The notes under the pieces: generated by a model | The model's input: the letters and a program-made list of their open reading frames with translations, nothing else | Told to the model about the DNA's origin: nothing | Databases searched by the model: none | Origin: Squalus acanthias | Lineage: Eukaryota | NCBI GenBank assembly: GCA_030390025.1 | Contig: JASTWF010000323.1 | Span: 62,001-126,000, forward strand | Length of the DNA stretch: 64,000 nt | Direction of reading: 5' to 3' | Made by a program: the position numbers and the translations under genes | In this document: in pieces, positions 6,557-63,550 of the stretch | How positions within the stretch are numbered: the stretch's first letter is position 1 | Layout: each line of letters begins with the position of its first letter

Positions 6557-7935
6557 TAGTAACTACAGGCCGGTCAGTTTAAAATCAGCGGTGGGTCAAC
6601 AATAATTCAAGTAAAAATTAACGGTCACTTGGAGAGATTAAAGCTAACTAAGGAGAGCCAACAACCATTTGTAAAAAGCAGATCGAGTTTGAATAATCGA
6701 ATTGCATTGTTTAATGTAGTAACAGGGAGGATTGAGGAAGGGATTGCAATGCATGTTGTCTACATGGCTTTTCGAAGGCGTTTAACAAAGTAGCACATAG
6801 AAGGCTGGTTAACAAAATTGAGGCTCATGGAATAGGTGGTCCAGGTGCAGCTTGGATAAGGAATTGCCTTAAGGACAGAAAACAGCGAGTTGTGGTCAAT
6901 GTCTGTTTTTCAGACTGGAGGATGGTAGGCAGTAGTGTTCCACAAGGGTAAGTGCTGGGGCCACTGCTTTATTTGATATATATAAATGACCTGGATATTG
7001 GAATACAGAGTAGAATTTCTAAATTTGCCGATGACACCAAACTTGGGGATGTGTCAATCAGTGAGGATGCTACGAATCGACTGCAACAGGACACAGGAAG
7101 GCTAGCAGAATGGGCAGATGGAATTTAATACAGAGAAGTGTGAGGTGATGCATTTTGGCAGACGGAACAGGGATAGGCAATATACACATAATGGCACGGT
7201 TTTAAAGAGTGTGCCGAGACAGAGGGAACTGGGAGTTAATGTGCATAGTTCCTCTGAAGATGGCGGGTTATATTGAGAGAGTGTTTAGCAAAGCATATGG
7301 GATCTTGGGCTTCATAAATAGAGGTATTGAGTACAAAAGTAGATAAGTTCTGCTGAACATTTATAAAGGGCTGGTTAGGCCACAACTGGTGTATTGTGTC
7401 CAGTTCTGGTCACCACACTTTAGGAAGGATGTGAATGCACTTGAGAGGGTGCAGAGGAGATTTAACAGAATGGTTCCGGGGATGGGGGATCTTACCTACA
7501 ATGACAGGTTGGAGAAGCTGGATTTGTTTTCATTAGAGCAAAGGAGGTTGAGGGGTGATTTGATAGAGGTGTACAAGATTATGAGGGGTTTGGATAGGCT
7601 GGACGGGGAAAGGCTGTTACCACTAGTTGGCGGTACAAGGTCTAGGGGACTAAGATTTAAGGTTTTGGGAAAGAGATACAGGGGCGACGTGAGGAAAAAG
7701 CATTTTACGCAGCGAGTGGTGAGGACCTGGATCTCGCTGCCGTTGGAAGTGGTGGAAGCGGAGCCACTCAATATTTTCAAGGGGAGACTGGATAGGCACT
7801 TGAAGGAAATAAACTTGCATTGCTACGGGGAAAGAACATGAGAATGGGACTAACTGGATTGCTCTATAGAGAGCTGGCATCGACTCGATCGGCCGAATTG
7901 CCTCATTTTGTGCCGTTATGACTCTCTGACTCTAT
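6557..7935 (+). mobile_element. 5'-truncated CR1 LINE (RT to 3' tail)
   Basis: KFADDTKLG at ~7021; ORF 7389..7841 [14 protein letters not shown]..; tail ttatgactctctgactctatg. Confidence 0.95.
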
Positions 7936-8039
7936 GGGATGTGGGCGTAGCTGGCTAGACCAGCCTTTATTGTCCATCCCTATTGCCCTTGAGAATGTCG
8001 TGATGAGCTGTCTTTTTAACAGCTGCAGTCCGTTTGATG

Positions 8040-8262
8040 ACAGATAGAGGAGAGATAGATGGAGATAGAGAGTGAGGAGAGATTATTAGATATAGATGGG
8101 AGGGAGAGAGGGTGACAGAGATAGAGGAGTGATAGACGGAGGTATTGAGAGAGGAGAGATTATTAGATATAGATAGGGAGAGAGAGGAGTTGACAGAGAT
8201 AGAGGAGAATTAGATGATAGCAGACAAAAGTTGAGTGAGAAGCAGATTATAGACAGAGGGAG
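8040..8262. repeat. GA/GATA-rich low-complexity tract
   Basis: Direct inspection. Confidence 0.8.
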
Positions 8263-8594: not shown

Positions 8595-8981
8595 AAGGCC
8601 CAGGCTCCATAGCGGCCTGTGCTGAGTTACCCTGATCTTACACCCGGTGTTGTACTGAATCCCGCACACACACAGAGCAGGAAAGTTCTAGGTTCCACCC
8701 CGGCCTGTGCTGAGTTAGCCTGATCTCACACCCGGTGTAGGACTGAGCCACTCCCGCCACACCCCGCCCCCCCCCCCCCGCCCCCCACCCACACACACAC
8801 ACAGAGCAGAAAAGGCCCAGTCTCTATCGCCTCTATGTGCTGAACTAGCCTGGTCTCACCCGGTGTGGTACTGCGCCCCACGCACACTCACATAAGAGGA
8901 AAGGCCTTGGTTCCATGTGCTGCCTGTGCTGAGTTTGCTGATCTCACCTGGTGTGGGACTGAGCCCCACACACACAGAGAA
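8595..8981. repeat. Tandem repeat, ~88-bp unit, 4 copies (one lengthened by poly-C and CA runs)
   Basis: ggcctgtgctgagttagcctgatctcacacccggtgt..actgagcc..cacacacagag recurs at ~8595, 8683, 8812 and 8901. Confidence 0.85.
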
Positions 8982-9440
8982 TGGGACAGTGTAGAGGAAG
9001 CTTTACTCTGTATCCAATCCATGCTGTATCTGCAATAGGAGTGTTTGATGGGACAGTGTAGAGGGAGCTTCACGCTGTATTTAACACGTGCTGTACCTGC
9101 CTGGGAGTGTTTGATGGGACAGTGTAGAGGGAGCTTCACTCGGTATCTTACCCTTGCTGTACCTGCCCCGGGAGTGTTTGATGGGACAATGTAGAGAGAG
9201 CTTTACTCTGTTTCTAACCCGTGCTGTACCTGCCCCGGGAGTGTTTGTTGTGACAGTGTAGAGGGAGCTTTACTCGGTATCTAACCCGTGCTGTACCTGC
9301 CCCTGGAGTGCTGGATGGGACAGTGTAGAGGGAGTATATCTCGGTATCTAACCCGTGCTGTACCTGCCCTGGCAGTGTTTGATGGGACAGTGTAGCGGGA
9401 GCTTTACTCGGTATCGAACCAGTGCTGTACCTGCCGGGGA
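8982..9440 (-). repeat. 67-bp satellite, ~7 copies, reverse orientation
   Basis: gggacagtgtagagggagctttactctgtatctaacccgtgctgtacctgccctgggagtgtttgat repeated; reverse complement of the arrays beyond 39 kb. Confidence 0.95.
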
Positions 9441-16282: not shown

Positions 16283-19200
16283 GAATCATAGAATCATAGA
16301 AAGTTACAGCACGGAAGGAGGCCATTTTGGCCCATCGTGTCCGCACCGGCGAACAAAGAGCTATCCAGCCTAATCCCACTTCCCAACTCTTGGTCCGTAG
16401 CTCTGCATGTTAGAGCATCCCAAGTGCACATCCAAGTACTTTTTAAATGTGGTTAGGCTTCCTGCCTCTACCACACTTTCAGGCAGTGAGTTCCAGAATC
16501 CCACAACCCTTTGGGTGAAGAAATGTTCCCTTAAATTGACTATAAACCTTCCCCCAATTACTTTAAATCTGTGCCCCCATGTTTTTGACCCCATTCTGCT
16601 AAGGAAAATAGGTTTTTTCTAACCAGTATATCTATGCCCCTCATAATTTTATACACCTCAATAAGTTCTCCCCTCAGCCTTCTCTGTTCCAAGGAAAGCA
16701 GACCCAACCTATCAAGTGTTTCCTCATAGCTAAGATTCTCTACTCCAGGCAACATCCTTGTAAAACATGCTCTGTACCCTCTCTAGTGCAATCACATCTT
16801 CCCTGTAATGTGGTGACCAGAACTGCACGCAGTACTCTAGCTGAGCCCTAGCTAGTGTTTTATATAGTTGAAGCATAACCCCCCTGCTCTTGTATTCTAT
16901 GACACGTCTAATGAAGGCAAGCATTCCGTATGCCTTCTTAACCAACTTATCTACTTGTCCTGCTACCTTCAGGGATCTGCGGACATGCACTCCAAGATCC
17001 CTTTGTTCCTCTACACTACTCGGTGTCCTAGCATGTAATGTGTATTCCCTTTCCTTGTTAGCCCTCCCCAAATGCATTACCTCAAACTTCTCCGGATTTA
17101 ATTCAATTTGCCACTGTTCTGCCCACCTGACCAATTTATTGATATCTTCCTGCAGTCTACAGTTTCTTTTTCAGTATCAACCACACAGCCCATTTTAGTA
17201 TCATCTGCAAACTTCTGAATCATACCCCCTATTTTCAAGTCAAGACCATTGATATATACCACAAAAAGCAAGGGACCTAGTACTGAGCCCTGCGGAAGCC
17301 CACGGGAAACAGCCTTCCAGTCACAAAAACACCCATCAACCATTACCTTTTGTTTCCTGTTTACGAGCCAGTTTTGAATGCAACTTGACACTTTACTCTG
17401 GATCCCATGGGCTTTTAACTTCGTGTCCAGTCTGCCATGTGGAACCTTATCAAAAGCCTTGCTAAAGTCCATATACATTACACCAAACGCACTACCCTCA
17501 TGGACCCTCCTTGTTACCTCCTCAAAATATTCAATCAAGTTTGTCAGACACCACCTTCCCGTAACAAATCCGTGCTGACTATCCTTGATTAATCTGTGTA
17601 TGTCTAAATGAAGATTTATCCTATCCTTCAGAATTCTTTCCAATAATTTTCCCACCACGGAGGTTAGGCATACTGGCCTGTAATTACTCGGTCTATCCTT
17701 TACTTCCTTTTTAAACAAGGTTAACACATTAGCAGTCCTCAAGTCATCCGGCACCACACCAGAAGCCAGAGAGAATTGAAAAATGATTGTCAGAGACTCT
17801 GCTATTTCCTCGTTTGCTTTGCTTAGCAGCCTGGGATACATTTCATCCAGGCCTGGGGAATTGTCCACATCTAAAGCTGCTAAACCCCTTAATACTTCCT
17901 CTCTCACTATGTTTATTTCATCTAATATTTCACACTTCTTCCCACCCCCCGACAGCAATTTCTGCTTCGACCCTCTCCTTTGTGAAAATAGACGCAAAGT
18001 ATTAAATAAGAACCCTACCGACGTCTCCCGCCTCCACACACGGATAATACTCATGTTCTCTAATAGGCCCTACCCTTTCTTTAGTTTTCCTCTTACTCTT
18101 AATATATTTATACATTTTCTTTGTGTTTTCCTTGATTTTACTTGCCAAGAGTTTTTCATGCTCTCTCTTTGCTTTCCTAATATCATTTTTAAATGCACCC
18201 CTGCGCTTACTGTACTCCTCTAAAGATTCTGGAGTATTTAGCCCTCGGTATCAGTCATACACCTCCCATTTTTCTTTATCCTACCCTGCATGTCTCTAGG
18301 CATTCAGGGGGCTCTAATTTTGTTAGTCCCACCCTTTTTATCCATGGGCACATGTTTGGTCTGTATATCACAGAATCACAGAATCCCCACAATGCAGATA
18401 GAGGCCATTTCGTCCCATCGAGCCTGCACCGACACATATCCCACCCTATTCCCGTAACCCCACGTATTTAATCCCCCTAACAATAAGTGTCAATTTATCA
18501 CAGCCAAATCAACCTAACCCGCACATCTTTGGACTGTGGGAGGAAACCGGAGCTCCCGGAGGAAACCCACGCAGACACGGAGAGAATGTGCAAACTCCAC
18601 ACAGACAGTCACCCGTGGCCGGAATCGAACCCGGGTCCCTGGTGCTGTGAGGCAACATTGCTAACCGCTATGCCACCGTGTTGCCCACACGGATCTAAAG
18701 CCCCCGGATCTCCTCCTTGAATGCCTCCCACTTCTCTGACACTGATTTCCCTTCAAGTAGCTGTTTCCATTCCACTATGTCTAAATCCCCTCTGAGCTTA
18801 TCAAAATTTGCTTTTCCCCAATTCAGATATGTTTTTTTCCTTGTCTATCCTTGTCCTTTTCCATAACTACCTTAAATCTAACAGAATTATGGTCACTAGC
18901 ACCAAATTGCTCCCCCACTGATAAGGCTTCTACCTGCCCAGCTTTATTCCCTAAAACTAAGTCCAGAAACTCCCCCTCCCTTGTTGGGCTTGCTACATAC
19001 TGGCTAAAAAAGTTCTCCTGGATGCATTCTAGGTATTCGCCACCTTCGATACACTTCACACTAATTTTATCCCAGTTAACACTGGGGTAGTTGAAATCCC
19101 CCACTATTACTTATTACTGCCCTATAATTTTTGCACTTCTCAGAAATGTGTCTGCATATTTGTTCGTCTATCTCCCTCTCACTGTTTGGGGATCTGTAGT

Positions 19201-23978: not shown

Positions 23979-24167
23979 GGATAGGGAAATTGGGAAAGTA
24001 TGGGCAGTATCAATCATAGAATCAAAGAATTGGTAAACCATGTTGTGTTGACAATTTGTTTAGCGGAGCATGACGTCTGCATGGATCATCGGCCTCGCCT
24101 GGTTTCAATCAATGATTTAAAATTCATTGATTTTATTCCTATTTTAATATTTATATCTTTTTGTTCT

Positions 24168-24352
24168 TAGGATATGTGTGATGTTGTCCAGAATGGTATT
24201 AGTTCCCCATCCCTAGTTACCCATGAGAAAATGGTGGGCCTTCATCTTGAGTCGCTGCAGTCCGTGTAGTAAAGGTGCTCCCACAATACTGTTAAGGAAG
24301 GAATTTCAGGCTTTTGACCCAGTGACGATGAGGGAAGGGCGATATTTTTGAA
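24168..24352 (-). mobile_element. 3' fragment of the LINE family seen at 50659-53856
   Basis: Reverse complement resembles ~53650-53835; a similar piece lies at ~7936-8035. Confidence 0.65.
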
Positions 24353-24358
24353 GGGTTC

Positions 24359-24752
24359 GGTAGCATAGTTTTATGTTGCTGGATTGGTAAACCAGATGCT
24401 TGGACGAATGATCCAGGTAGTTCGAATCCCACCAGGTGTGGAATTTAAATGCAATTAATTCAACAAATGTGGAAAAGAAATCTAGTATCAGTAATGGTGA
24501 CCATGAAACTACCGGATTGTCGTAAAAAGCCATTTGGTTCACTAACGTCCTTTAGGGAAGGAAATCTGACCTCCTTACCCATTATGGCCGAAATGTAACT
24601 CCAGACCCACAGCAATGTGGTTTACTCTTATCTGAAATGGCCGAGCAAGACACTCAGTTCTTTACGGCGGCTCGCCACCACCTTCTCCATGGCAATTAGG
24701 GATGGACAATAAATCCTGCCCTTGCCAGCGACGCCCAGATCCCAAGAATGAA
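24359..24752 (+). mobile_element. tRNA-derived SINE sharing both head and tail with the LINE at 50659-53856
   Basis: Starts GGTAGCATAGT; B box GTTCGAATCC at 24420-24429; 24359-24659 aligns with 50659-50972 and 24660-24752 aligns with ~53747-53840. Confidence 0.85.
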
Positions 24753-25534: not shown

Positions 25535-25800
25535 ATACCCTCGATTCATCAGCTGAGGGTGGGCGATAGGTGGTAATCAGCAGGAAGTTAGTTACCTTGA
25601 CGATATCTAACTGAAAGCCATGAGACTTCATTATGTCCTTAGGCAAAGTTGAGAACTCGCAGGATCTCTCCCTGCTGACTGAAAACCACTGTGACACCAC
25701 CACTGATGGGTTTGTCCTGCCGGTGGAAAAGCACATACTTTGGGATGTTGATGGAAGAGTCAGGAATGCTAGCTGATAGGTATGGTTCTGAGAGTATAGC
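25535..25800 (-). mobile_element. Endonuclease fragment of the tRNA-headed LINE family
   Basis: LLITTYRPPSADES; reverse complement resembles ~51130-51365. Confidence 0.7.
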
Positions 25801-26057
25801 TATACGCGTATTCAATGTTTCCAGAGCGTTTTATGGAGTATTGAGATTGATACAGGGGATTTATCTTATTGGTTAATATTTTAAACGCTTTCCTTTGATT
25901 GCATGGTATGAACAGTTTGTGGGTTTTATTTATTCTTCCCCTTTGAAAAGCACCATTACAATTTTGGCTGCGTGGGGGCAATCTTTACAAAGATCTTGTT
26001 GTACTTATTCGAAGTTCAGACAAACAGAATCGAGGCAAAACGAGGAATGTAATTCTT

Positions 26058-29000
26058 GGACTGAATCTCTCTTCATACGTCATTCCTGCCATCCCAGGTA
26101 TCAGTCTGGTAAATCTTCGCTGCACTCCCTCCATGGCAAGAACATCCTTCCTCAGATAAGGCGACCAAAACTGCACACAATACTCAAGGTGTGGTCTCAC
26201 CAAGGCCTTGTACAACTGCAGCAAGACGGCCTGGCTCCTGTATTCGAAACCTTTCGCTATGAAGGCCAACATACCATTCTCAGATCTCGTTGCAATTCCC
26301 TTTTTCCAATCTATTGCCGTTCAGATAATAATCTGTCTTCCTGCTTTTGCCACCAAAGTGGATAACCTCGCATTTATCCACATAATTGTGCATCGGCCAT
26401 GCATCTGCCCAAACACCAACCTGTCCAAATCATACTGGAGTTTCTCTGCATCATCCTCACAGCACACACGCCCACCCAGCTATGTGTCGTCTGCAAACTT
26501 AGAGATATTACATCTAGTTCCCTCCTCTAGATCATTAATATATATTGTGAAAAGCTGGGGTCCTAGCACCGATCCCTGTGGTACCCCACTAGTCACTGCC
26601 TGCCACTCGGAAAAAGACCCGTTTATTCCAACTCTTTGCTTCCTGTCTGCCAACCAGTTCCCTATCCAAATCAGTACCTCACCCCAATCCCATGTGCTTT
26701 AACTTTGCACGCTAATCTCTTATGCGGGACCTTATCGAAAGCCTTCTCAAAGTCCAAATACACCACACGCACTGTTTCTCCCTTATCTATTCCACCAATT
26801 ACATTCTCAAATAATTCCAGTAGATTAGTCAGGCATGATTTCCCTTTTGTAAATCCATGTTGACTTATCCGATCCTGTCACTGTTTTCCAAGTCCTCTGC
26901 TATTACATCTTTTATAATGGAATCTAGCATTTTTCCCACTACCAATGTCAGGCTTACCGGTCTATAATTCCCCGTTTTTTCTCTACCACCTTTTTCAAAT
27001 AGTGGGGTTACATTAGCTACCCTCCAATCCATCGGAACTGTTCCACAATCAATAGAATTTTGAAAGATGACCAGCAATGCATCTACTATTTCTAGGGCCA
27101 CTGCCTTAAGTATCCTAGGATATAGATTATCAGGCCCTGGGGATTTATCGGCCTTCAATCCCGTCTATTTCCCTAACACCATTTCCCCACAAATAGTGAT
27201 TTCATTCCATTCCTCCCTCTCATTAGACCTTATGTTCCCCGACATCTCTGGGAATTTATTTGTGTCCTCCTTTGTGAAGACAGAACCAAAGTATGTATTT
27301 AATTGTTCCGCCATTTCTTTGTTCCCCATTATAAATTCCCCTGATTCTGAATGCAAGGGACCTACGCTTGACTTCAGAGAAACATATATAGAAAATAGGA
27401 GCAAGACCAGGCCATTCAGCCCCTCGAGCCTGCTCCGCCATTCAATGAGACCATGGCTGATCGTCCAAATTCAGTAGCCTGTCCCTGCCTTCTCCCCATA
27501 TCCCTTGATCCCTTTAGCGTTAAGAAATATATATAACTCCTTCTTGAATATATTTAATGAATTCGCGTCTACTGCCATCTGTGGTAGACAATTCCACAGG
27601 TTCACCACTCTCTGGGTGAAGATATTCCTACTCATCTCAGTCCTAAATGGCTTACCCCTTATCCTTTGACTGTGACCCCTGGTTCTGGACTCCCCGTCCA
27701 TCGGGAACATCCTTTCTGAATCTAGTCTGTCTAGTCCTGTTAGAATTTTATAAGTTTCAATGAGATCCCCTCTCATTCTTCTAAACTCCAGCGAGTATAA
27801 GCACCATTGACCCAATCTCTCCTCATACGTCATTCCTGCCACCGCAGGTATCAGCCTGGTGAATCTTCGCTGCTCTCCCTCCATGGCAAGAACATCCTTC
27901 CTCAGATAAGGCGACCAAAACTGCACACAATACTCAAGATGTGGTCTCACCAAGGCCCAGTACAACTGCAGAAAGACATCCTTGTTCCTGTACTCGAACC
28001 CTTTCGCTACGAAGGCCAACATACCATTTGCCTTCTTAACCGCCTGCTGCACCAGCATGCTTACCTTCAGCGACTGGTGCACAAGGACACCCAGGTCTCG
28101 TTGCACTTCCCCTTCTCCCAATCTATTGCCATTCAGATAATAATCAGCCTTCCTGTTTTTGACACCAAAGTGGATAACCTCGCATTTATCCACATTATAC
28201 TGCATCTGCCATGCATCTGCCCCATCATCCAACCTGGGCAAATCATACTGCAGTTTCTCGGCATCCTCCTCACAGCACACAATCACACCCAGCTTTGTGT
28301 CGTCTGCAAACTTGGAGATATTACATCCAATTCCCTCGTCCAGATTATTAACATATATTGTGAATAGCTGGGATCCTAGGACCGATCCCTGCGGTACCCC
28401 ACTAGTAACTGCCTGCCACTCGGATAAAGACCCGTTTATTCCAACTCTTTTCTTTCTGTCTGCCAATCAGTTCTCTATCCAAGTCAGTACCTTGCCCCCA
28501 ATCCCTTGGTACTTTTCTTTACACGCTAATCTCTTATGCGGGATCTTATCGAAAGCCTTCTGAAAGTCCAAATACACCACTTCCTCTGGTTCTCCCTTAT
28601 CTATTTTACCACTTTCATCCTCCAAAAATTCCAGTGGATTAGTCAAGCAAGATTTACCTTTTGTAAATCCATGTTGACTTTGTCCGATCCTGTCACTGTT
28701 TTCCAAGTGCTCTGCTATTACATCTTTTATAATGGACCCTAGCATTTTCCCCACTACCGATGTCAGGCTTACTGGTCTATAATTCACCGTTTTCTCTCTA
28801 CCTCCTTTTTTGAATGGTGGGGTAACATTAGCTACCCTCCAATCCATGGGTACTGTTCCAGAGTCTATAGAATTTTGGAAGATGACCAGCAATGCATCTA
28901 CTATTTCTAGTGCCACTTCCTGAAGTACCCTAGGATGTAGATTATCAGGCCCTGGGGATTTATCGGCCTTCAATCCCGTCAATTTCCCTAACACGATTTC

Positions 29001-32000
29001 CCTACAAATACTGATTTCATTCAGTTCTTCCCTCTCATTAGAACCTATGTTCCCCGACATCTCTGGGATGTTATTTGTGTCCTCCTTTGTGAAGACAGAA
29101 CCAAAGTATGTATTTAATTGATTTGCCATTTCTTTGTTCCCCATTATAAATTCCCCTGATTCTGACTGCAAGGGACCTACGCTTGACATCACCAATCTTT
29201 TTCTCTTCACATATCTATAAAAGCAATAACAGTCAGTTTTTATGATCCCTGAAAGCTTACTCTCATACTCTATTTTCCCGCTCTTACTTAATCCCTTTGT
29301 CCTTCGTTGCTGAATCCTATACTGCTCCCAATCCTCAGGTTTTCTGTTTTTTCTGGCAAATGTATATGTCCTCTCCTTGGATCTTATGCTATCCCTAATT
29401 TCCTTTGGTAGCCACGGTCGAGTCACCTTTTTTGTTTTATTTTTATGACAAACTGGGATGAACAAATTCTGTTGTTCATTCTTGCGATCTTTGAATGTTT
29501 GCCATTGCCTATCCATCGTCAACCCTTTGAGTGACATTCCCCAGTCAATCCTACCCAACTCGCGCCTCATACCATCGTAGTTTCCTTTATTTAAATTCAG
29601 GACCCTTGTCTCCGAGTCCACTACTTCACTCTCCATCTTAATGAAGAGTTCTATTATATTATGATCGCTCCGACACAAGGGGCCTCGCACAACAAGATTG
29701 CTAATTAATCCTTTCTCATTGCATAATACCCAATCTAAAATGGCCTGATCTCTAGTTGGTTCCTCGACATATTGGTCCAGGAAACCATCCCGTAAACACT
29801 CCAGGAACTCCTCCTCCACAGTATTGTTACTAATTTGGTAAGCCCACTCTATATGTAGATTAAAGTCGCCCATGATAACTGCTGTGCTCTTATTGCACGC
29901 TTCTCTTATTTCCCTTTTAATGCCATCCCCAACCTCCGTATTACTGTTTGGGGGTCTATACACCACTCCCACTAGCGTTTTCTGCCCCTTGGTATTTCTC
30001 AGTTCTACGCATACAGATTCCACATCATCAGAGCTAATATCCTTCCTTACAATTGTGTTAATCCCCTCTTTAACCAGCAATGCTACCCCAGCTCATTTTC
30101 CTTTTTGCCTATCTTTCCTGAATATTGAATTGTTGAGTACCCAGCCTTTGTCACCGTGGAGCCATGTTTCCGTAATCCCAATCATATCATATTTGTTTAC
30201 CTCTATTTGCGCAGTTAATTCATCCAGTTTATGACGAATGCTCCTCGCATTAAGACACAAAGCCTTCAGGATTGTTTTTTTAACGCTCTTAGACATTTTA
30301 GAATTATTATTCACTGTGGCCACGTTTGATTTAAGTCCTTGATTTCTCTGACTGACACCTTTGTTTTTCTCCTTCCTGACATTTGCTTCTATCCTTGTTT
30401 CCCTTTCCTCTGTCTCCCTTCTCAGGTTCCCAACCCCCTGCAGTTTAGTTTGAACACTCCCCCAGAGCACTAGCAAACAGTCCCCCTCGGACATCGGACC
30501 CCGGCCCTGCCCAGGTGCAAACCGTCCGGATTGTACTGATCCCACCTCCCCCAGAGCCGGTTCCAATGTCCCGGGAATTTGAATCACTCCCCCTTGCATC
30601 ATTCCTCTAGCCACGTATTCATCTGAAATATCCTTCTATTTCTACTCTGACTAGCACGTGGCACTGGTAGGAATCCTGAGATTACTACCTTTGAGGTCCT
30701 TTTTTAAAATTTACCTCCTAACTCCCAATATTCAGCTTTTAGGACCTCATCCCTTTTTTTCCCTATATCGTTGGTACCTATATGCACCAGGACAACTGGC
30801 TGTTCACCCTCCCTTTCCAAAATGTTCTGCAGCATCTGTGAGACAACCTTGTCCCTTGCACCAGGAAGGCAACACACCATCCTGGAGTCTCGTTTGCCGC
30901 CGCAGAAACGCCTATCTATTCCCCTTACAATAGAATCCCCTATCACGATAGCTCGACACCTATTTTTCCTCCCGTCCTGTGCAGCAGAACCACCCCTGGT
31001 GCCAGGAAGTTGGCAGCTGCTGCCTTCCCCTGATAAGCCATCCCCCTCAACAGTATCCAAAGCAGTATATCTGTTTGAGATGGGAATGTCCACAGGGGAC
31101 TCCTGCACTACCTGCCTGCGCCTACTACTCTGCCTGGTGGTCACCCATTCCCTTTCTGCCTGTGCAACCTTTACCTGTGGTGTGACCAACTGGCTAAACG
31201 TGCTATCCACGAGGTCCTCAGCATCGCGAATGCTCCCGTATGTATCCATTCGCAGCTCTAGCGACACAATGCGGTCTGCCAGTACCTGCAGCTGGATACA
31301 CTTCCTGCACACATGGTCTTCAGGGACACAGGAAGTGTCCCCGATTTCCCACATAGCGCAGGAGGAGCATACCACGGTGACAGGCTGTGTTGCCATGACT
31401 GACCCTTTAATTAATTGAACTTAAATTAAATCAAATCTTTCCCACCAATTACCAACTTTCCCCGCTACACCACAGAGACCCTAGAAACTTTAAACCACAA
31501 AATTAAAGTTTGGAAAAAGGAGAAAAAGAGAAATACTGACCAACCAATCACTTACCTGCTTTCTGATGACGTCACACTTTGATTATTTTTTACTTCTCTC
31601 TCTCCCGCTCTCGGGGCTCAAATTGGTAAGCCTATTGGTCGCTGCCGCCTTTTATAGCCGCCGCCTCGCCGCTGTCGCTCCACCCATGTCCGCCGCCTCT
31701 GTGGGACTCGCTTGTCGCTGCTGCCTTTTATGGCCGCCGCCGCGCCGCTGTCGCTCCACTCAGGTCTTTTTCTCTTCACATATCTATAGAACATTTTACA
31801 GTCAGTTTTTATTTTCCCTGGAAGCTTACTCCCATATTCTATTTCCCCCCCTCTGAATTAATCCCTTTGAACTCCTTTGCTGAAACCTAAACTGCGCCCA
31901 ATCCTCAGGTTTGCAGCTTTTTCTGCACAAGTTATATGTCCTCTCCTTGAATCTTATGCTATCCCTAATTTCCCTTGTTAGCAACGTTTGAGTCACATTT

Positions 32001-33645: not shown

Positions 33646-35808
33646 ATGAGCATGAAATTCCTGCACTAAGGCGGGAGCAGTGTAATCTAAGCCACCTTGT
33701 GAATTAAATTCCTGTTCTGAGGTGGTGCAGATTAAGCTAGACTGCGCAGGGAATGAAATTCCTGGATTGAAGTGGGAGCAGTGTAATCTAGGCAGCCTCG
33801 GTATAAGATTCCTGGACTGAGGGGAGAGCAGTGTAATCTAGGCGTGTCCTAGGAATGATATTCCAGTAGTGAGACGGAGGCATTGTAACGTATTCAGTGT
33901 TGGAAATTAAATTCCTGATCTGTGGCGGGAGCAGTGTAATCTAGGCGTGTCCTCGGAATGACATTTCTGTCGTGAGACTGGGGCAGTGTAACGTATTCAG
34001 TCTTGGGAATTAAATTCCTGGACTGTGGCGGGAGCAGTGTATTCGACGCAGCCCTGGGAATAAAATGCCTTGAATGAAGTGGGACCAGTGTAAACTAGGC
34101 TGCCCTGGGAATTATATTCCTCGACTGAGGCGGCAGCAGTTTAATCCTAGCGGTCCTGAGGAAATAAATCCTGGATTTAGCCGAGAGCAGTGTAATCCAG
34201 GCGGTCCTGAGAATGAAATTCCTGGACTGAGCCGGGAGCAGTATAATCTAGGCGATCCTGAGAATGAAAGTCATGGACTGAGGCGGGAGCAGCGTAATCT
34301 ATGCGGATCTGGGAATGAAAGTCATGGACTGAGGTGGGAGCAGCGTCATCTATGCGGCCTCGGAATGCCATTCCTGGACTGTGGCGGGAGCCGTGTTATC
34401 TAATCGACCTGGGAATGAAATTCCTGGACTGAGGCAGGAGCAGTGTAATCCAGCCGGTCCTGGTAATGAATTTCCAGGACTGCGGTGGGAGCAGTGTAAT
34501 CTAGGCGGATCTGGGAATGAAATTCCTTAACTGAGGAGGGAGCAGTGTAATCTAGGCCCCCCGGGAATGACATTTCTGGACTAAGGCGGGAGCCGTGTTC
34601 TCTAGTCCGATTGGGAATGAAATTTCTGCACTGACGCGGGAGCAGTGTAATCTAGGCGGCCGTGTGAATGCAATTCCTGGACTGAAGCGATAGCCGGGTA
34701 ATCTAGGCCGCCCTGGGAATTAAATTCCTCAACTGAGGCGGGAGCAGTGCATTCTAGGCAGCCTGGGAATAAATTTCCAGGACTGAGGCAGAAGCACTCA
34801 AATCGAGGCGGCCTCGGAATGACATTTCTTGACTGAAGTGGGAGCCGTGCAAACTGGGCTGCCTGGGAATTATATTTCTGGACTGCGGCGGGCACAGTGT
34901 AATCTAGGTGGCCCTGGTAATCAAATTCCTCGACTCAGGCGGGAAAAGATTAAACTGGGCGACCTGGCAATTACATTCCTGAACTGAGACGGGAGCACCT
35001 TAATCGAGCCGGCGCATTGAATGACATTCCTGGACTAAGGTGGCAGTACTGAAACGAAGACGGTGCTGGGAATGAAATTCCTGGACTGAAACGGGAGCAG
35101 TGAAACTAAGCAGCCTGTGAATTAAACTCCTAGACAGAGGCAGGATTAGAGTAATCTAGGTGGCCCTACGAATAATATTCCTGTACTGAGGCGGGAAGAG
35201 AGTAATATAGGCGGCCCTGGGAAGGACATTTCAGTACTGAGGCAGGATCAGTGTAATTTAGGCGGCCTGGGAATTACATTCCTCAACTGAAGAGGGGGCA
35301 GTGTAATCTAGGCGGCCTGGGAATGAAATGCCTGTACTGAGGCTGGAGCAGTTTAGTATAGGCGGCCCTGGGAAATAAATTCCCGGAATGAGGCGGAAGC
35401 AGTGTCATCTAGGCAATCCGAGGAATGAAATCTCAACGACTGAGGCGGGTGCAATGTAAACTCGGCTGCCCTGGGAATGATATTCCTGTACTGAGGTGGG
35501 AGCCATGTAATCGAGGCGGTCCTGAGAATGAAATTCACGGAATTAACCGAGAGCAGTGTAATCCAGCCTGTCCTGAGAATGAAATTCCTGTGCTAAAGCT
35601 GGAGCTGTGTAACGTCGGCAGACTTGAAATCAAGTTCCTGGATTGAGGCGGAAGCAGTGTAATCTAGGCGGCCCTGGCAATGAAATTCCTGTCTTGAGGC
35701 GGGAGCAGTGTAATCCAGACGACCCTCTGAATTACATTTCGAGATTTCGGCAGGAGCAGCATAATCTAGGGTGTCCAGGGAATGAAATTCTCTAGATTGA
35801 GGCGGTCT
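33646..35808. repeat. Tandem satellite, 50-51 bp unit, roughly 42 copies
   Basis: Consensus gggaatgaaattcctggactgaggcgggagcagtgtaatctaggcggccct; gaatgaaa at 34211, 34262 and 34313. Confidence 0.95.
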
Positions 35809-50200: not shown

Positions 50201-50650
50201 ACCAGCCCTGGGAGTGTTTCATGGGACAGTGTACAGTGTAAATCTCCCTGTACATTGTCCCCTGAAATACTCCCATGGCTGGTACAGCACGGGTTAAAAT
50301 AGATTAAAGCTCCCTCTACACTGTCCTATCAAACACTTCCATGGCAGGTAAAGCGCGGGTTAGATACAGAATAAACCACCCTCTGCAGTCTCCTATCAAA
50401 CACTAGGAGGACTGTTACAGCCCGGGACCGATGCAGAATAAAGCTGCATCTTCAGTTCCCCATCAAACACTCCTAGGACCTGTACAGCACGGGTTAGATA
50501 CAGAGTTAAGCTCCCTCTATACTGACCCGTCAAAATCTCCCCGGGCAGTTACAGTGCCGGTTAGATGCAGAGTAAAGCTCCATCTACACTGTCCCATCAA
50601 ACACTCCCAGGGCAGTTGCAGCACGGGTTATGTACAGAGTAAAACGTCCA
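50201..50650 (+). repeat. 67-bp satellite (first 36 bp inverted)
   Basis: Direct match to the consensus. Confidence 0.9.
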
Positions 50651-50658
50651 GTAATTTA

Positions 50659-53600
50659 GGTAGCGTAGTGGTAATTTCACTTGGCTAGTATTTCAGTTAA
50701 GCCTGGTCCAGAGAAATGAGTTCAAATGCCACCACGCCAGCTGGGGAATTTTAATGCAGTTAATTAAATAAATCTGGAATAAAGGGCTAGTATCAGTAAT
50801 GGTAACTACGAATCTATCGGATTGTCATATAAAACCAATCTGGTTCATTAATATCCGTTAGGGAAAGAAATCTGCCGTGTTTACCCGTTCTGACCTATAT
50901 GTGACTCCAGGCCATCAGCAATGTGGTTGATTCGAAACTGCCCTCTGAAATGGACGTGCATGTCACTCAGTTGTAACTAACAGCTACGACACAAAATAAT
51001 AAGAATGAAATCGGCTGCAGACATGCCAACGGCACACCCAACCCAGTCGACAAAGCAAAGTCCTCCTCACCAACATCTGGGGAGAGCGGTCCCACAGAAT
51101 AGTGAAACAAAAGCCTGACATAGTGATACTGACAGAATCATACCTTTCAGCAAATGCCCCAATATCCTACATCACCATCCCTGGGAATGTCCTGTCCCAG
51201 CAGCAGGACAAACCCAGTCGGTATACAGTCGGGAAGGAGTTACCCTGGGAGTCCTCAACATTGACTCCGGAATCCATGAAGTCTCATGGCTTCAGGTCAA
51301 GCATGGGTAAGGAAACCTCCTGCTGATTACCACCTACCACCCTCCCTCAGCTGGTGAATCAATACTCCTCCATGTTGAACAACACTTGGAAGAAGCACTG
51401 AGAGTAGCAAGGGCACAGAATGTACTTTGGGTGGGGGACTTCAATGTCCATCACCAAGCGTGGCTCGGTAGCAACACGAATGAATGAGTCCTGAAGGACT
51501 TAACTGCCAGTCTGGGCCTGCGGCAGGTGGTGAGTGAAAAACCTACCTGACCTCGTCCTCACCAATCTACCTGTCGCAGATTCATCGGTCCATGACAGCA
51601 TTGGCAGCAATGACCACCGCACAGTCATTGTGCAGACGAAGACCCGTCTTCACACTGAAGAAACAACTCCATCGTGTTGTGTGGCATCACCACCGTGCTA
51701 AATGGGATAGATTCAGAACAGAGCTAGTAGCTCAAAACTGTGCATCCATGAGTCGTTGTCGACCATCAGCTGCAGCAGGATTGTATTCCACCACAATCTG
51801 TAACCTCATGACCTGGCATATCAATCACTCTACCATTACCACCTAGCCAGGGGACCAACCCTGGTTCAATAAGGAGTGTAGAAGAGCATGCCAGGAGCAC
51901 GACGATGCACACCTAAAAATGAGGTGCCAAACTGGGGAAGCTGCAACACAGGACTCCATGCATGCTAAAAGTATCAAGCAACATGCTACATACAGACAGG
52001 GCTAAGCGATCCCACAATCAACGGATCAGATCAAAGCTCTGCAGTCCTGCCACATCCAGTAGTGAATGTTGGTGGACCATTAAACAACTAACGGGAGGAG
52101 GCGGCCCCAAGAATATCCCCATCCTGAATGATGGTGGAGCCCAGCACGTGAGTGCCGAAAGACAAGGCTGAAGCGTTTGCAACCAACTTCAGCCAGAAGT
52201 GCCGAGTGGATGATCCATATCTGCCTACTCCCGAGGTCTCCATCATCACAGAAGCCATCTTCAGCCATTTCGATTCACTACACGTGATATCAAGAAACGG
52301 CTGGGCGCATGGATGCAGCAAATGCTATGCGCCCCGAAAACATCCCGGCTATCGTGCTGACCACTTGTGCTTCAGAACTAGCCGCGCCTGTAGCCACGCT
52401 GTTCCAGTACAGCTATAACTCTGGCATCTATCCTACAATGTGGAAAACTGCCCATGTATGTCCTGACCAAAAAAGCAGGACAAATCCAACCCGGCCAATT
52501 GCCGCCCCATCAGACTATTCTCAATCATCAGCAAAGTGATGGAAGCTGTCGACAGTGCTAGCAAGCGGCACTTACTCACTGATGCCCAGTTTGGGGTCCC
52601 CCAAGAACACTCGGCTCCCGACCTCATTACAGCTTTGGTCCAAACATGGACAAAGGAGCTGAATTCCACAGGTGAGCTGAGAGTGACTGTCTTTGACATC
52701 AAGGAAACATTTGACCGAGTGTGGCATCAAGGAGAACTCGTAAAACTGAAGTCAATGGGAATCAGGGGTTAAACGCTCCGGTGGCTGGAGTCATACCTAG
52801 CACAAAGGAAGATGGTTGTGGTGGTTGAATGTCAATCATCACAGCCCTAGGACATCGATGCAGGAGTTCCACAGGGCAGTGCCTCGGCCCAGACATCTCC
52901 AGCGGCTTCATCACTGACCTTCCCTCCAACATAAGGTCAGAAATGGGGATGTTCGCTGCTAACTGCACAGTGTTCAGCTCCATTCACTGCTCCTCAGATA
53001 ATGAAGCAGTCCATGCCCGAATGCAACAAGACCTGGACGACGTTCAGGCTTATAAGCGGCAGATAACTTTCGCGCCACAGAAGTGCCAGGCAATGACTAT
53101 CTCCAACAAGTGAGATTCTAATAACCTCCCCTTGACATTCATTGGCAATACCATCGCCGAATACCCCACTATCAACAACTTGGGCGTCACCATTAACCAG
53201 CAACTATACTGGATCCGCCACATAAATACTGTGGCAACAAGAGCAGGTCAAAGGCTAGGTATTCTGCGGCGAGTGTCTCACCTCCTGACTCCCCAAAGTC
53301 TTTCCACCATCTACAAGGCACAAGTATGGAGTGTGATGGAATACTCTCCAATTGCCTGGATGAGTGCAACTCCAACAACACTAAAGATGCTCGTCACAAT
53401 CAAGGACAAAGCAGCTCGTTTGAGTGGCACCCAATCCAGCACCTTTAACAGTCAATCCCTCCACCATCGGCGCACCGTCGCTGCAGTGTGTACCATCTAC
53501 AAGATGCACTGCAGCAACTCGCCAAGGCCTGCTCTGCAGCACCTTCCAAACCCGCGATCTCTTCCACCTAGAAGGACAAGGGCAGCAGGCGAATAGGTAC

Positions 53601-53856
53601 GCCGCCACCTCCAAGTTCCCCTGCAATCACATACCATCCTGACTTAGAAATATATCGCCGATGCTTCATCGTCGCTAAGTCAAAATCCTGGAACTCACTA
53701 CCTAACAGCACTCTGGATTACTATCACCACACGGACTGCATCGGTTCAAAAAGGCCGCTCACCACCACCTTCTCAAGGGCAACTAGGGATGGGCAATAAA
53801 TGCTGACATTGCCAGCGACGCCAAGATCACATAAACGAATAAAAAAACAAGAAAAA
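50659..53856 (+). mobile_element. Decayed single-ORF LINE (APE+RT, CR1-group-like but distinct from copies A-D) with a tRNA-derived 5' head
   Basis: Head GGTAGCGTAGTGG with B box at 50720; KVLLTNIWG at 51057, PDIVILTESYL, GDFNVHH, DIKETFDRVWH, GVPQG, IYKAQVWSVMEYS; A-rich end; many frameshifts. Confidence 0.88.
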
Positions 53857-54587
53857 CTCTGCACCATCAAACACTCCCAGCCCAGGTACAGCACGGCTTA
53901 CATACAGAGTATACTCCCGCTACACTGTCCCATTAAACAATTCCAGAGCATGTACAGCACCGGTTAAAAACAGTGTAAAGCTCCCTCTCCACTGTCCCAG
54001 CAAACATTGCCAGCGTAGTTACATCACCGGTTAGATATATGATAAAGCTTCCTCCTCACTGTCGCATCACACTCCCAGGGCAGGTGCAGCACGAGTTAGC
54101 TACAGAGGAAATCTCCCTCTCCCCTGCCCCATAATGTCACATGAAACACTCCCAGGGCAGTTGCAGCACGGGCTGAAATAGAGTAATGTTCCCTCTGCAT
54201 TGTCCAATCAAACACTCGCAGGGCAGGTACAGCACGGATTAGATGCAGAGTAACGCTCCCTATAAACTTTCCTATCAAAAACTCCCAGGACAGGTACAGC
54301 GCAGGTAAGATACAGAATAAAGCTCCCTATACACTGTCCCATCAAACACTCCCAGGGCAGGTACAGCACGGGTTAGGTACAGAGTAAAGCTGCCTCTACA
54401 CTGTCCCATCAAACACTCCCAGGGCAGGTACAGCACAGGTTAGATACTGAGTAAAGCTCCCTCTACACTTTCCCATCAAACACTCCCAGGACAGGTACAG
54501 CATGGGTTAGATACAGATTAAAGCTCCCTCTACACTGTCCCATCAAACGATCCCAGGGCAGCTACAGCACGGTTTATATACAGAGTA

Positions 54588-59162: not shown

Positions 59163-60842
59163 AAAGCACCCTCTACCCTGTCCCATCAAACACTCCCAGG
59201 GCAGGTTCACATAGGTGCAGATACAGAGTAAAGTTCCCAAAGCATTGTCCGAACAAACATTTCCAGGGCACGTACAGCACGGTATCGATACAGAGTAAAG
59301 CTTCCCTCTGCATTGTTCCAAAAAACACTCCCAGGGCAGGTAAAGCACTTTTCAGATACAGAGTAAAGCTCCCTCGACACTGTCCAAACAAACACTTCTA
59401 GGGCAGGTACAGCACTTTTCAGATACAGAGTAAAGCTCCCTCGACACTGTCCAAACAAACACTTCCAGGGCAGGTACAGCACGGGTTTGATGCAGAGTAA
59501 AGCTCCCTCCAAACTGTCCCAATAAACACCCCCAGGGTAGGTACAGCACGGGTTAGATACAGAGTAATGCTCCCTCTACACTGTCCCATCAAACACCCCC
59601 AATGCAGATACAGTACGGGTTAGATACAGAATAAAGCTCCTTCTACACTAACCCATCAAACACTCCCAGGGAATGTACAGCACGGGTTAGATATAGAGTA
59701 AAGCTCCCTCTATTTGTCCCATCAAACACTCCCTGGGCCAATACAGCACGGGTTAGATACAGAGTAAAGTTCCCTCTCCACTGTCCCAACAAACATTCCC
59801 AAGGCAGGTGCAGTACGCGTTAGATACAGAGTAACGCTCCCTCGACACTGTCCCATCAAACACTCCCTGGGCCAATACAGCACGGGTTAGATACAGAGTA
59901 AAGTTCCCTCTCCACTGTTCCAACAAACATTCCCAAGGCAGGTGCAGCACGGGTTAAATACAGAGCAAAGCTTCACTCTTCGTTGTCCCAAAAACACTCA
60001 CAGGGCAGCTACAGAAGGGGTTTGATATAGTGTAAAGTCCCTTTAGACTGTCTGATCAAATACTCTCAGGGCAGGTACAGCAGGGGTTAGATAGAGAGTA
60101 AAACTCCCTCTACACTGTCCCATCAAACACTCCCAGGGCAGGTACAGCACGGGTAAGATACAGAGTAAAGCTGCCTCTACACTTTCCCATAAACACTCCC
60201 AGGGCAGGTACAGCACGGGTTAGATACAGAGTAAAGATCCGTCTTCACTGTCCCATTAAACACTCCCAGGACATGTACAGCACGGGTTAGATACAGAGTA
60301 AAGCTCCCTCTACAAAGACCCATATAGCTCTCCCAGGGCAGGTACAGCATGGGTTAGATACAGAGTAAACCTTCCTCTACAAAGACCCATAAAACACTCC
60401 CAGAGCAGGTACAGCATGGTTTAGATACAACGTAAAGCTTCCTGTACACTGTCGCTTCAAACAGTTCCAGCGCAAGTACAGCACGGTTTTGATACAGAGT
60501 AAAGCTCCCTCTACACTGTCCAATCAAACACTCCCATGGATTGTACAGCAAGGTTTACATATAGGGTAAATCTTCCTCTACACTGTCCCAACAAACACAA
60601 AATTGAGAGGTCGCACAACACCAGGTTATAGTCCAACAGTTTTATTTGAAATCACAAGCTTTCGGAGCTATCAAATAAAACTGTTGGACTATAACCTGGT
60701 GGTGTGCGACCTCTCAATTTTGTCCACCCCAGTCCAACACCGGCATCTCCGCATCATGACCAACAAACACACCCAGGGCAGGTACAGCAGGGGTTTAATA
60801 CAGAGTAAAGCTCCCTCTTGACTGATCCATCTAACACTTCAG
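59163..60842 (+). repeat. 67-bp satellite array
   Basis: Direct match to the consensus. Confidence 0.95.
60599..60759. mobile_element. Palindromic, probably Penelope-derived insertion with an 11-bp TSD
   Basis: 53-bp arms 60597-60649 and 60671-60723 with 1 mismatch; ccaacaaacac at 60588-60598 and 60760-60770. Confidence 0.75.
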
Positions 60843-60846
60843 CCTA

Positions 60847-62418
60847 CTTGAACCGCTGCAGTCTGTTTGGTGAAGGTACTCCCACAGTGCTGTTAGGGAA
60901 GGAGTTCCAGGATCTTGATCCAGCCACGATGAAGGATCGGCGATATACTTCTAAGTCAGGATGATGTGTGACTTGGAGGGGAACTTGTAGGTGGTGGTTT
61001 TCCCATGCACCTGCTGCCCTTGTCCTTCTGGGTGGAAGAGGTCGCGAGTTTGGGAGGTGCTGCCGAAGAAGCCTTGGCGAGTTGCTGCACAGCAACTTGT
61101 AGATGGTACATACTGCAGCCACGGTACACTGGTGTTGGAGGGAGTGAATGTTTATCTTGGTGGATGGTGTGCCAATTAAGTAGGCTACTTTGTCCTGGAT
61201 GGTGTCAAGCTTCTTGTGTGTTGTTGGAGCTTCACTCATCCAGGCAATTGCAGTGTATTCCATCACACTCCTTACTTGTGCCTTGTCGATGGTGGAAAGG
61301 CTTTGGGAAGTCAGGAGGTGAGACACTCAACGCAGAATACCTAGCCTCTGACCTGCTCTTGTTGCCACAGTATTTATGTGGCTGGTCCAATTAATTTTCT
61401 GGTCAATGGTGACCCCCAGGATGTTGATGTTGGGGTTTCTGCGATGGTAATACCGTTGAATGTCAAGGGGCGGTGGTTCGAATCTCGCTTGTTGGAGATA
61501 GTCATTGCCTGGCACTTATGTGGAGCGAATGTTACCTGCCACCAATCAGCCCAAGCCTGAACGTCGTCCAGGTCTTGTTGCATATTTGCATGGACTGCTA
61601 CATTATCTGAGGAGTTGTGAATGGTGCTGAACACTGTGCAGTCATCAGCAAACATTCCCATTTCTGACCATATGTTGGAGGGAAGGTCATTGATGAAGCA
61701 GCAGAAGATGTTTGGGCCTAGGTCACTGCCCTGAGGAACTCCTGCAGCGATGTCCTGGAGCTGTGATGTTTGACCTTCAACCACCACAACATCTTCCTTT
61801 GTGCTTAGAAATGACTCCAACCAGTGGATCGTTCCTCGCCCCCCCCCCCCCCTGCTTCCCATTAACTTCAGTTTTACTAGGGCTTCTTGATGTCACACTC
61901 GGTCAAATGCTGCCTTGATATCAAGGGCAGTCACTCTCACCTCACCTCCGGAATTCAGCTCCTTTGTTAATGTTTGGACGAAGGCTGTAATGAGGTCGGG
62001 AGCCGAGTGGTCTTAGCGGAACTCAAACTGCGCATCAGTGAGCAGGTTATTGGTGAGGAAGTGCCGCTCGACAGCACTGTGGATGACACCTTCCATCACT
62101 TTGCTGATGATTGAGAGAAGACTGCTGGGGCGGTAATTGGCCGGGTTGGATTTGTCCTGCTTTTTGTGGACAGGACATACCTGGGCATTTTTACACATTG
62201 TCGGATAGCTGCCAGTGTTGTAGCTGTACTGGAACAGCTTGGCTAGAGGTGCGGCTAGTTCTGGAGCACAAGACTTCAGCACGTTCTCCGGACTGTTGTC
62301 GAGGCCCAAATGCATTTGCTGTATCCAGTGCGCTCAGCCATTTCTTGATATCACCTGGAGTGACTCGAATTAGCTGAAGACTGGCTTATTTGATGGAGGG
62401 GACCTCAGGCGGAGGTTT
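60847..62418 (-). mobile_element. RT-region copy of the tRNA-headed LINE family
   Basis: NYRPSSLLSIISKVME, GVPQGSDLGP..MFADD, KAQVRSVMEY; homologous to ~52200-53750. Confidence 0.9.
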
Positions 62419-62429
62419 GTTTACTTCAT

Positions 62430-63550
62430 CAAAAGACATTTGTAATTTTGAACACCTCATCAAATCTCCACTTAATCTTCTCTACTGTAAGGAAAGCAGC
62501 CCAATCTTATTCAGTCTCTCCGTATAACTGAAGTCCCTCATCCCTGATATTACTCTAAGAATTATCTTCTGCACCCGCTCCAAGGCCTTGACATCCTTCC
62601 TAAATTGCGGTGCCCAGAATTGGACACAATACTCCAGCTGAGGCCTAACCAGTGGTTTATAACGGTCTAACGTAACTTCCTTGCTTTTGTACACTCGTCC
62701 TCTATTATTAAAGCCAAGGATCCCGTAAGTTTTTTTTGTAGCCTTCACAACTTGTCCTGCCCACTTCAAAGATTTGTGTCCATACACCCCATGTCTCTCT
62801 GTTCCTGCACCCCCTTTAAAATTGTACCATTTAGTTCTTATTGTCTCTCCTCATTGTTAATTCCAAAATTTATCAATTCACACTTCTCTGTGTTAAATTT
62901 CATCTGCTCTGTGCTTGACTATTTCAACAGTCAGTCTATCTCCTCCTGAAGTCTGTTACTATACTTCACATTGTTTACTACTTTTCCGAGTTTTGTGTCA
63001 TCTGCAAACTTTGAACTCATGCCCTGTGACCCTGGCCCAGGTCATTAATATATATCAAAAAGAGCGGTGATCCCAACACCGGCCAATGGGGAACACCGCT
63101 GCACACTTCCCTCCAGTTCAAGAACAATCGTTCACCACTTCTCTCTGTTTTCTGTTCCTTAGAAAATGTTGTGTCAATGCTGCCTCTGTCCATTTAATCC
63201 CATGGGCTTTAATTTTTCTAACAAGTCTATTATGAGGTACATTACCAAATGTCTTTTGAAAGTCCATATACACAACCTCAACCGCACTACCCTCATCACC
63301 CCTCGCCTTCAATTCATCGAAGAACGCGATCAATTTATTCAAACACGATGTGCCTATAATAAATCCATGCAGACTTTCATTTGTTAGACCATACTTTTCC
63401 ATGGGTAACTTAATTTTGTCCTGGAATAACGTCTCTAATAGTTTGCCCACCACCGATATTAGGCTGACTGGTCTGTAGTTGCCGGGTTTATCCCTCTCCA
63501 ACTTTTTATGGAGGTGCAAAATTTGCATTCCATCAGTCCTCTGACACAAC
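62430..63550 (-). mobile_element. CR1 RT fragment
   Basis: [32 protein letters not shown]. Confidence 0.9.

Follow-up and report, generated by a model that had tools for sequence, protein, structure and literature searches.

A tRNA-derived head at the 5′ end of elasmobranch Zenon LINEs and its possible use as a Pol III promoter

A stretch of 64,000 nucleotides from Squalus acanthias (contig JASTWF010000323.1), termed the window, was found to contain at positions 50659 to 53856 a decayed LINE with just one open reading frame (ORF), encoding an endonuclease and a reverse transcriptase (RT), inside a 67-bp satellite. Judged by its sequence, this LINE is an elasmobranch Zenon of the CR1 group, and the tRNA head with which it begins is a real, family-wide feature of this known LINE family. 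We lean slightly towards a scheme in which this dead copy belongs to a lineage whose 5′ end is the tRNA-derived head and whose members would be driven by Pol III. Pol III transcription is what defines SINEs, and coding capacity what defines LINEs, so a family seeming to do both breaks this division. If the scheme is true, such a family would provide a natural 3-kb protein-coding Pol III transcript and a passage from LINE to SINE in one step, as against the usual model with the head gained after deletion. Should Pol II turn out to do the transcribing, the result would reduce to a structural detail of a known family that had been overlooked.

The LINE copy described in the original prediction proved to be real upon re-reading of the window, with every feature at its position (Table 1). 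The endonuclease codons for KVLLTNIWG start 85 bp past 50972, the end of the part shared with a short element elsewhere in the window, and only ~400 nt lie upstream of the endonuclease, leaving, as predicted, no room for an ORF1. Pfam domains were matched in 2 of the 12 frame pieces scanned, confirming both the endonuclease (Exo_endo_phos_2, E 9e-8) and the RT (RVT_1, E 9e-9), and a tblastn search with eight full-length relatives (846 to 1195 aa) covered positions 51018 to 53715 across several frameshifts. The copy is dead, its ORF carrying stops and frameshifts before terminating at a TAG codon at 53784-53786, and the A-rich tail at 53838-53856 corresponds to the poly-A tail of Zenon elements. 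Satellite was present on both sides, stopping at 50643 and restarting at 53856; the left array ends at unit phase 48 and the right one restarts at phase 58, with 9 bp lost. As the satellite is broken once and restarts 9 bp on, this arrangement fits entry of the LINE into the satellite as a single insertion unit. No target-site duplication was found by comparison of the flanks at the LINE insertion. Fifteen bases (50644-50658) between the satellite and the head match neither and were possibly gained during insertion. Several arrays of the 67-bp satellite occur at 8981-9435 and 39371-60598 of the window, LINEs being nested both between the arrays and within them, and a separate 51-bp array lies at 33652-35805.

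Table 1. Coordinates of the Zenon LINE, its flanks and related elements in the window
Positions	Strand	Feature	Basis
24357-24752	+	Short non-coding form: head plus body, meeting the last ~14 codons and the tail at a GTT microhomology	blastn, alignment
50232-50643	.	67-bp satellite, left flank	
50659-50735	+	tRNA-derived head	Alignment with short form; exact words in SquAca_Zenon-1
50736-50972	+	Non-coding 5′ body common to the short form	blastn
50973-51056	+	Linker, long form only; A-rich stretch	Variant contigs, consensuses
51057-51660	+	APE-type endonuclease coding region, frameshifted	Pfam PF14529; tblastn
51661-53786	+	Single ORF from the linker domain to the C-terminus, including the reverse transcriptase; stops, frameshifts	Pfam PF00078
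53787-53856	+	Short 3′ UTR and A-rich tail	Common to 24655-24752 and 8045-7932
53856-54587	.	67-bp satellite, right flank, restarting 9 bp further in the unit	
60840-62431	-	Second copy of the same Zenon LINE, both ends cut	83% identical

Four words drawn from the window LINE (start of the head, B box, body, linker) each had an exact counterpart in the row of SquAca_Zenon-1, which identified the element as an elasmobranch Zenon in place of the unknown SINE-LINE hybrid that had been proposed (PMC13343379, available part). A single ORF with an APE endonuclease and an RT and without an ORF1, as found here, is the structure of this group: according to the available part of Stuart et al. (2026, PMC13343379), the Zenon elements of elasmobranchs, coelacanth and hagfish all lack ORF1 and have a poly-A tail. 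The absence of ORF1 was, therefore, rejected as a novelty, being normal in Zenon. The same part of that source gives tens to thousands of copies per Zenon family, with intact copies nearly nil (0/2313, 1/1419 and 3/612 as examples).

The close protein matches were from sharks and rays; the ten were 58 to 73% identical, four of them being named from Mobula, Scyliorhinus or Heptranchias, and the distant relatives were EN-RT proteins of 935 to 1195 aa on contigs of 3.3 to 4.3 kb, one of which came from amphioxus. In a 41-row RT tree, whose rows were chosen by similarity and include no named Zenon references, both window copies grouped 100/100 with three close database proteins (one of them named from a shark), apart from the two pieces of canonical CR1 that the window contains. 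When metagenome_contigs were scanned for a motif, the one match was a 23-mer due to chance, homology not extending beyond it; scans of viral_contigs and genome_contigs yielded nothing, and the N-terminal piece of the endonuclease, used in a protein search, gave 0 of 40 candidates. Separately, a near-intact canonical CR1-type ORF2 of ~937 codons with two internal stops only was observed on the reverse strand at 27522-30332. Five database gene models (P0003, P0006 and P0173 to P0175), four of which are named from sharks, carry in-frame pieces of the window LINE inside host proteins; these are probably annotation artefacts or cases of exonisation.

The head of the window copy contains, as predicted, an A-box-like TAGCGTAGTGG at 50661-50671, an AGT loop at 50685-50691 within an anticodon-type arm at 50680-50696 (the Thr-type AGT itself being at 50687-50689) and a B-box-like GTTCAAATGC at 50720-50729, within a B box at 50719-50729 that is one base off the textbook motif. 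An extra arm of ~20 nt lies between the anticodon-type arm and the B box. Such a long extra arm would presumably suit a class II tRNA too; the loop itself reads Thr(AGT). Alignment with the head of the short form gave 52 of 76 identical positions, and only 1 of 2000 shuffles was as good. A motif scan detected neither a strict nor a relaxed A and B box match at the LINE head, ARAGORN reported 0 tRNA genes in the whole window, Rfam gave no tRNA match at E ≤ 10 in three stretches, and a blastn comparison of the LINE and short-form heads against phages produced no tRNA match. The LINE head folded no better than shuffles (z −0.98), and among the heads and tails folded, significant structure was restricted to the short-form head (z −2.3), which was not a cloverleaf. 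As the head was missed by ARAGORN, Rfam and folding, its tRNA origin is not demonstrable from this decayed copy alone; the predicted derivation from a tRNA is clear, by eye, in the family consensuses. Elsewhere in the window, an unrelated tRNA-headed repeat at 18590-18685 on the reverse strand, which we take to be V-SINE/HE1-like, has strict A and B boxes and is the sole strict match in the window.

Inspection by eye of the first 400 nt indicated that a good A box, followed by an anticodon-type arm, an extra arm and then a B box, opens all seven elasmobranch Zenon consensuses, which derive from five species (Zenon-1 of CarCar, HypSab, RhiTyp and ScyCan; SquAca-1, -2 and -3); the A and B boxes of tRNA origin that characterize SINE2 elements were, by this inspection, seen in each. 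None of the three hagfish/coelacanth Zenon rows, whose 5′ ends may be incomplete, opens with the head. A paired stem of 5 bp round an AGT-type loop is present in most of the consensuses; that of SquAca-2 is damaged, and HypSab and RhiTyp have an altered version. All seven elasmobranch consensuses run on through the same body into the same linker, HypSab-1 and SquAca-3 reaching the start of the endonuclease within the first 400 nt, and the other five the linker. The linker of the window copy is ~30 nt shorter than those of the consensuses (by eye).

Four of 24 public sequencing runs (X3, X6, X7 and X21) were compared. The linker, which has no counterpart in the short form, was covered at 51041 and 51053 by 90 and 98 contigs in X3 and by 42 and 45 contigs in X6. 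Summed contig depths in the linker bins (50996-51061) were 65,854 and 255,923 for X3 and 1,639 and 12,996 for X6, values that are not copy numbers, the single contigs listed having depths of about 3 to 40; the X3 values were of the same order as those of the endonuclease bins. The first linker bin was almost without depth in X7 (0.81), and X21, a raw-read run that contributed 19 reads only, was uninformative. None of the contigs listed spanned the whole distance from head to ORF. One bridging contig was present among them (X6 record 9, 50932-51265), which is probably this very locus in a relative since it has only 8 differences.

These data bear on whether the head stands beside the ORF by chance, as a one-off recombinant between a SINE and a 5′-truncated LINE, the consensuses then being assembly chimeras. 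Such an accident would agree with the single head-ORF junction that, as had been stated, occurs within the window, and with the absence of a fully spanning contig among those listed. The same linker follows the body in seven consensuses from five species, however, and is covered by many variant contigs in X3 and X6, the satellite is broken once and there is no LINE-type tail after the body. The junction is thus family-wide rather than unique to this locus, and neither a different 5′ UTR nor an ORF1 was found. Chance adjacency was rejected because of the family-wide linker and the single satellite break; it is largely refuted, and we consider it very improbable. The related claim that no SINE tail lies between head and ORF held for a LINE-type tail, but an A-rich stretch is present at ~50990-51010. 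The head may have reached the LINE from a SINE, the A-rich linker then being the old tail, or directly from a tRNA.

Depletion of TTTT (T4) runs on the sense strand had been put forward as a further test of the prediction. Such runs were scarce: the two Zenon copies have 1 in 4754 bases, against 60 in the other LINE stretches, which total 18443 bases. The only run among the 3198 bases of the window LINE (at 50752) is copy-specific, since almost every contig that covers this position in three runs has TTTA there. In codon-preserving shuffles, 0 T4 runs were observed on the coding strand against 4.2 expected (P 0.005), and the counts of A4, C4 and G4 matched expectation. Within the first 400 nt, T4 was seen by eye in 0 of 7 elasmobranch consensuses versus 3 of 3 hagfish/coelacanth rows. 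The same codon-preserving test, however, showed a shortage of T4 in the control LINEs as well (21 versus 31.4 expected, P 0.003); scaling by the control ratio lowers the expectation to ~2.8 runs, for which a count of zero is marginal (about P 0.06). The predicted scarcity of the runs stood, their deficit beyond that of control LINEs being only marginal. Neither copy was significant alone in dinucleotide shuffles (P 0.07 and 0.08), and Fisher's test of T3 versus T4 runs gave P 0.055. The two Zenon copies overlap and are, therefore, not independent in these counts. The family is also C-rich at third positions (0.34 versus 0.15), a preference that leads to fewer T-runs whatever its cause.

Transcription by Pol III would account for avoidance of T4 terminators on the sense strand, and we infer, with confidence just on the favourable side of even, that Pol III transcribes elasmobranch Zenon. 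The available part of Kojima (2018, PMC5786205) regards Pol II as very likely the polymerase that transcribes LINEs and the bipartite elements derived from them, and the head could be family-wide but a captured relic, or a helper, within a Pol II 5′ UTR, the lack of T-runs then reflecting base composition. This alternative is compatible with the other Zenons and deleted forms, which have no tRNA head and are presumed to be transcribed by Pol II (PMC6740152 and PMC5786205, available parts), with the marginal status of the T4 deficit once corrected for the controls and with the presence of AATAAA at 53795 and 53838; a capped, polyadenylated RNA would, moreover, solve translation. A mere relic fits poorly with a head that is placed at the extreme 5′ end in 7/7 consensuses, its two boxes being conserved in sharks and rays alike, and with a coding strand from which T4 is absent when other homopolymers are not. 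The two copies of AATAAA within the first 130 nt (50767 and 50778) are a weak point against Pol II. We regard a relic head as unlikely and retain Pol III transcription as the preferred reading.

By sequence comparison, the short element looks less like a separate SINE partner of the LINE than like the LINE after loss of its middle by internal deletion. This 400-bp form contains only the two ends, 5′ and 3′, of the LINE to which it belongs, as does a deletion element. Its body matched the LINE in blastn (50719-50972 versus 24419-24659, 75.6% over 254 columns), its tail, which includes the last ~14 codons of the ORF, is 90/111 identical to the LINE, and a relaxed A and B box match is present at 24361/24420. 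An overlap of the two halves at GTT and retention of the terminal ORF codons are what an internal deletion would leave. In X7, 335 contigs pass from the same body end directly into a tail that is ~25 nt shorter than that of the short form in the window; hence, at least two short forms exist, having arisen via a second deletion or a separate origin. Further pieces of the Zenon family, all on the reverse strand, were observed at 24162-24353 (a 3′ fragment lying head to head with the short form), 25540-25806 (endonuclease) and 7932-8045 (tail).

In the Pol III scheme, head and ORF would move as one unit, a step for which the evidence is direct since every elasmobranch consensus begins at the head. 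The internal A and B boxes would act as the promoter from which Pol III would transcribe 3.3 kb. This RNA would have to be translated without a normal cap or an in-frame AUG, via either the short upstream AUG or, within the linker, a start codon other than AUG, which is the weakest step. RNAs made by Pol III lack a cap, and their translation is usually poor. In the window copy, no in-frame ATG without an intervening stop was found upstream of the endonuclease, the ATG at 51005 in the linker being out of frame with the endonuclease, and the consensuses have a common out-of-frame ATG in the linker (by eye). These features indicated that translation would be unconventional under any polymerase. 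Pol III transcription combined with translation of the resulting RNA is, in our estimation, about evenly balanced. The EN-RT protein of a LINE binds its own 3′ tail and inserts the element by target-primed reverse transcription, which in this case would have been accompanied by a small target deletion. The junctions suggest, finally, that deletion of the middle between short microhomologies would yield a 400-nt head, body and tail, a ready-made SINE.

Translation of an uncapped RNA would not be needed if labour were split, with Pol III making the full-length RNA that is copied and the protein arising from Pol II read-through of copies in host genes. Such a division would fit both the boxes and the avoidance of T4. 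Intronic RNA is rarely exported, however, which counts against this possibility, and a long-kept ORF implies, by inference from cis preference, that the protein mostly copies its own RNA. Zenon-like LINEs have been annotated in the whale shark, where 39% of the Zenon-like sequence is intronic (10.1101/443036, available part), as split labour would favour. Overall we consider split labour improbable. The Pol III scheme in its fullest form would make elasmobranch Zenon an autonomous coding retrotransposon that is read by Pol III via a tRNA-derived promoter, is translated independently of a cap and gives rise to SINEs by deletion, the promoter and the terminator-free 3.3-kb strand predating the shark/ray split; this fullest form is put forward tentatively, our confidence in it falling a little short of even.

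The Zenon family and its lack of ORF1 were already known, and what seems to be new is the tRNA head as the 5′ end of this coding family. The available main text of PMC13343379 contains no mention of tRNA, polymerase, promoter, Pol III, head or non-autonomous, and a term search of the available part of its preprint found tRNA, promoter, Pol III and polymerase to be absent. No Pol III-driven or tRNA-headed Zenon was detected in literature titles and the starts of abstracts, a scope outside which Repbase, Dfam and subscription journals lie. The parts of PMC7245038, PMC3747384 and PMC4824008 that were available (for the last, the supplement with one file left out) contained nothing on the elasmobranch Zenon family. 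The tRNA head of elasmobranch Zenon seems, therefore, to have been present in public data but unremarked.

Among known systems, the elasmobranch Zenon LINEs are the closest, having a single APE-RT ORF, no ORF1, a poly-A tail and a length of ~3.3 kb, with identical head, body and linker words and no structural difference from the window copy (PMC13343379, available part). As the long element is 3.2 kb with an endonuclease and an RT, it is not a SINE, despite its SINE2-type head. Known chondrichthyan SINEs carry an L2 tail, as described in the available part of PMC5499810; of these, SacSINE1/CmiSINE are likewise tRNA-headed repeats of sharks and chimaeras but, compared by description, are non-coding, with a body of Deu or CORE type and a tail from L2-2_CM, in contrast to the Zenon tail of the short form. 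Motif searches on the Deu-SINE/SacSINE1 question in three supplements (one file left out) gave 0 matches. The Zenons of bivalves and butterflies mobilise SINEs via the tail only (PMC11481361, PMC10294476 and PMC6685494, available parts).

Closer in process are the lepidopteran Zenon/Persaeus elements, in which a single-ORF Zenon gave rise to short forms with 5′ and 3′ parts, including the end of the ORF; in the available part of PMC6740152, however, Persaeus is without tRNA homology or a Pol III promoter, whereas the shark LINE and its short form are both headed. One published mention exists of an autonomous LINE in which a tRNA-like sequence occurs, that of RTE-1_DAn (Kojima 2018, PMC5786205, available part). 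RTE-1_DAn and related elements resemble the shark element as autonomous-type LINEs containing a sequence that resembles a tRNA, and so match many SINE2s, but belong to the RTE clade, and the comparison is one by description, the position and role of the tRNA-like sequence being unstated in that part of the source. Bov-tA and SINE2-1_ACar share with the short form a tRNA head joined to 5′ and 3′ LINE parts; in these, as described in the available parts of PMC4494074 and PMC5786205, the parent LINE is headless and the head was gained after deletion, whereas the coding parent in sharks is already headed.
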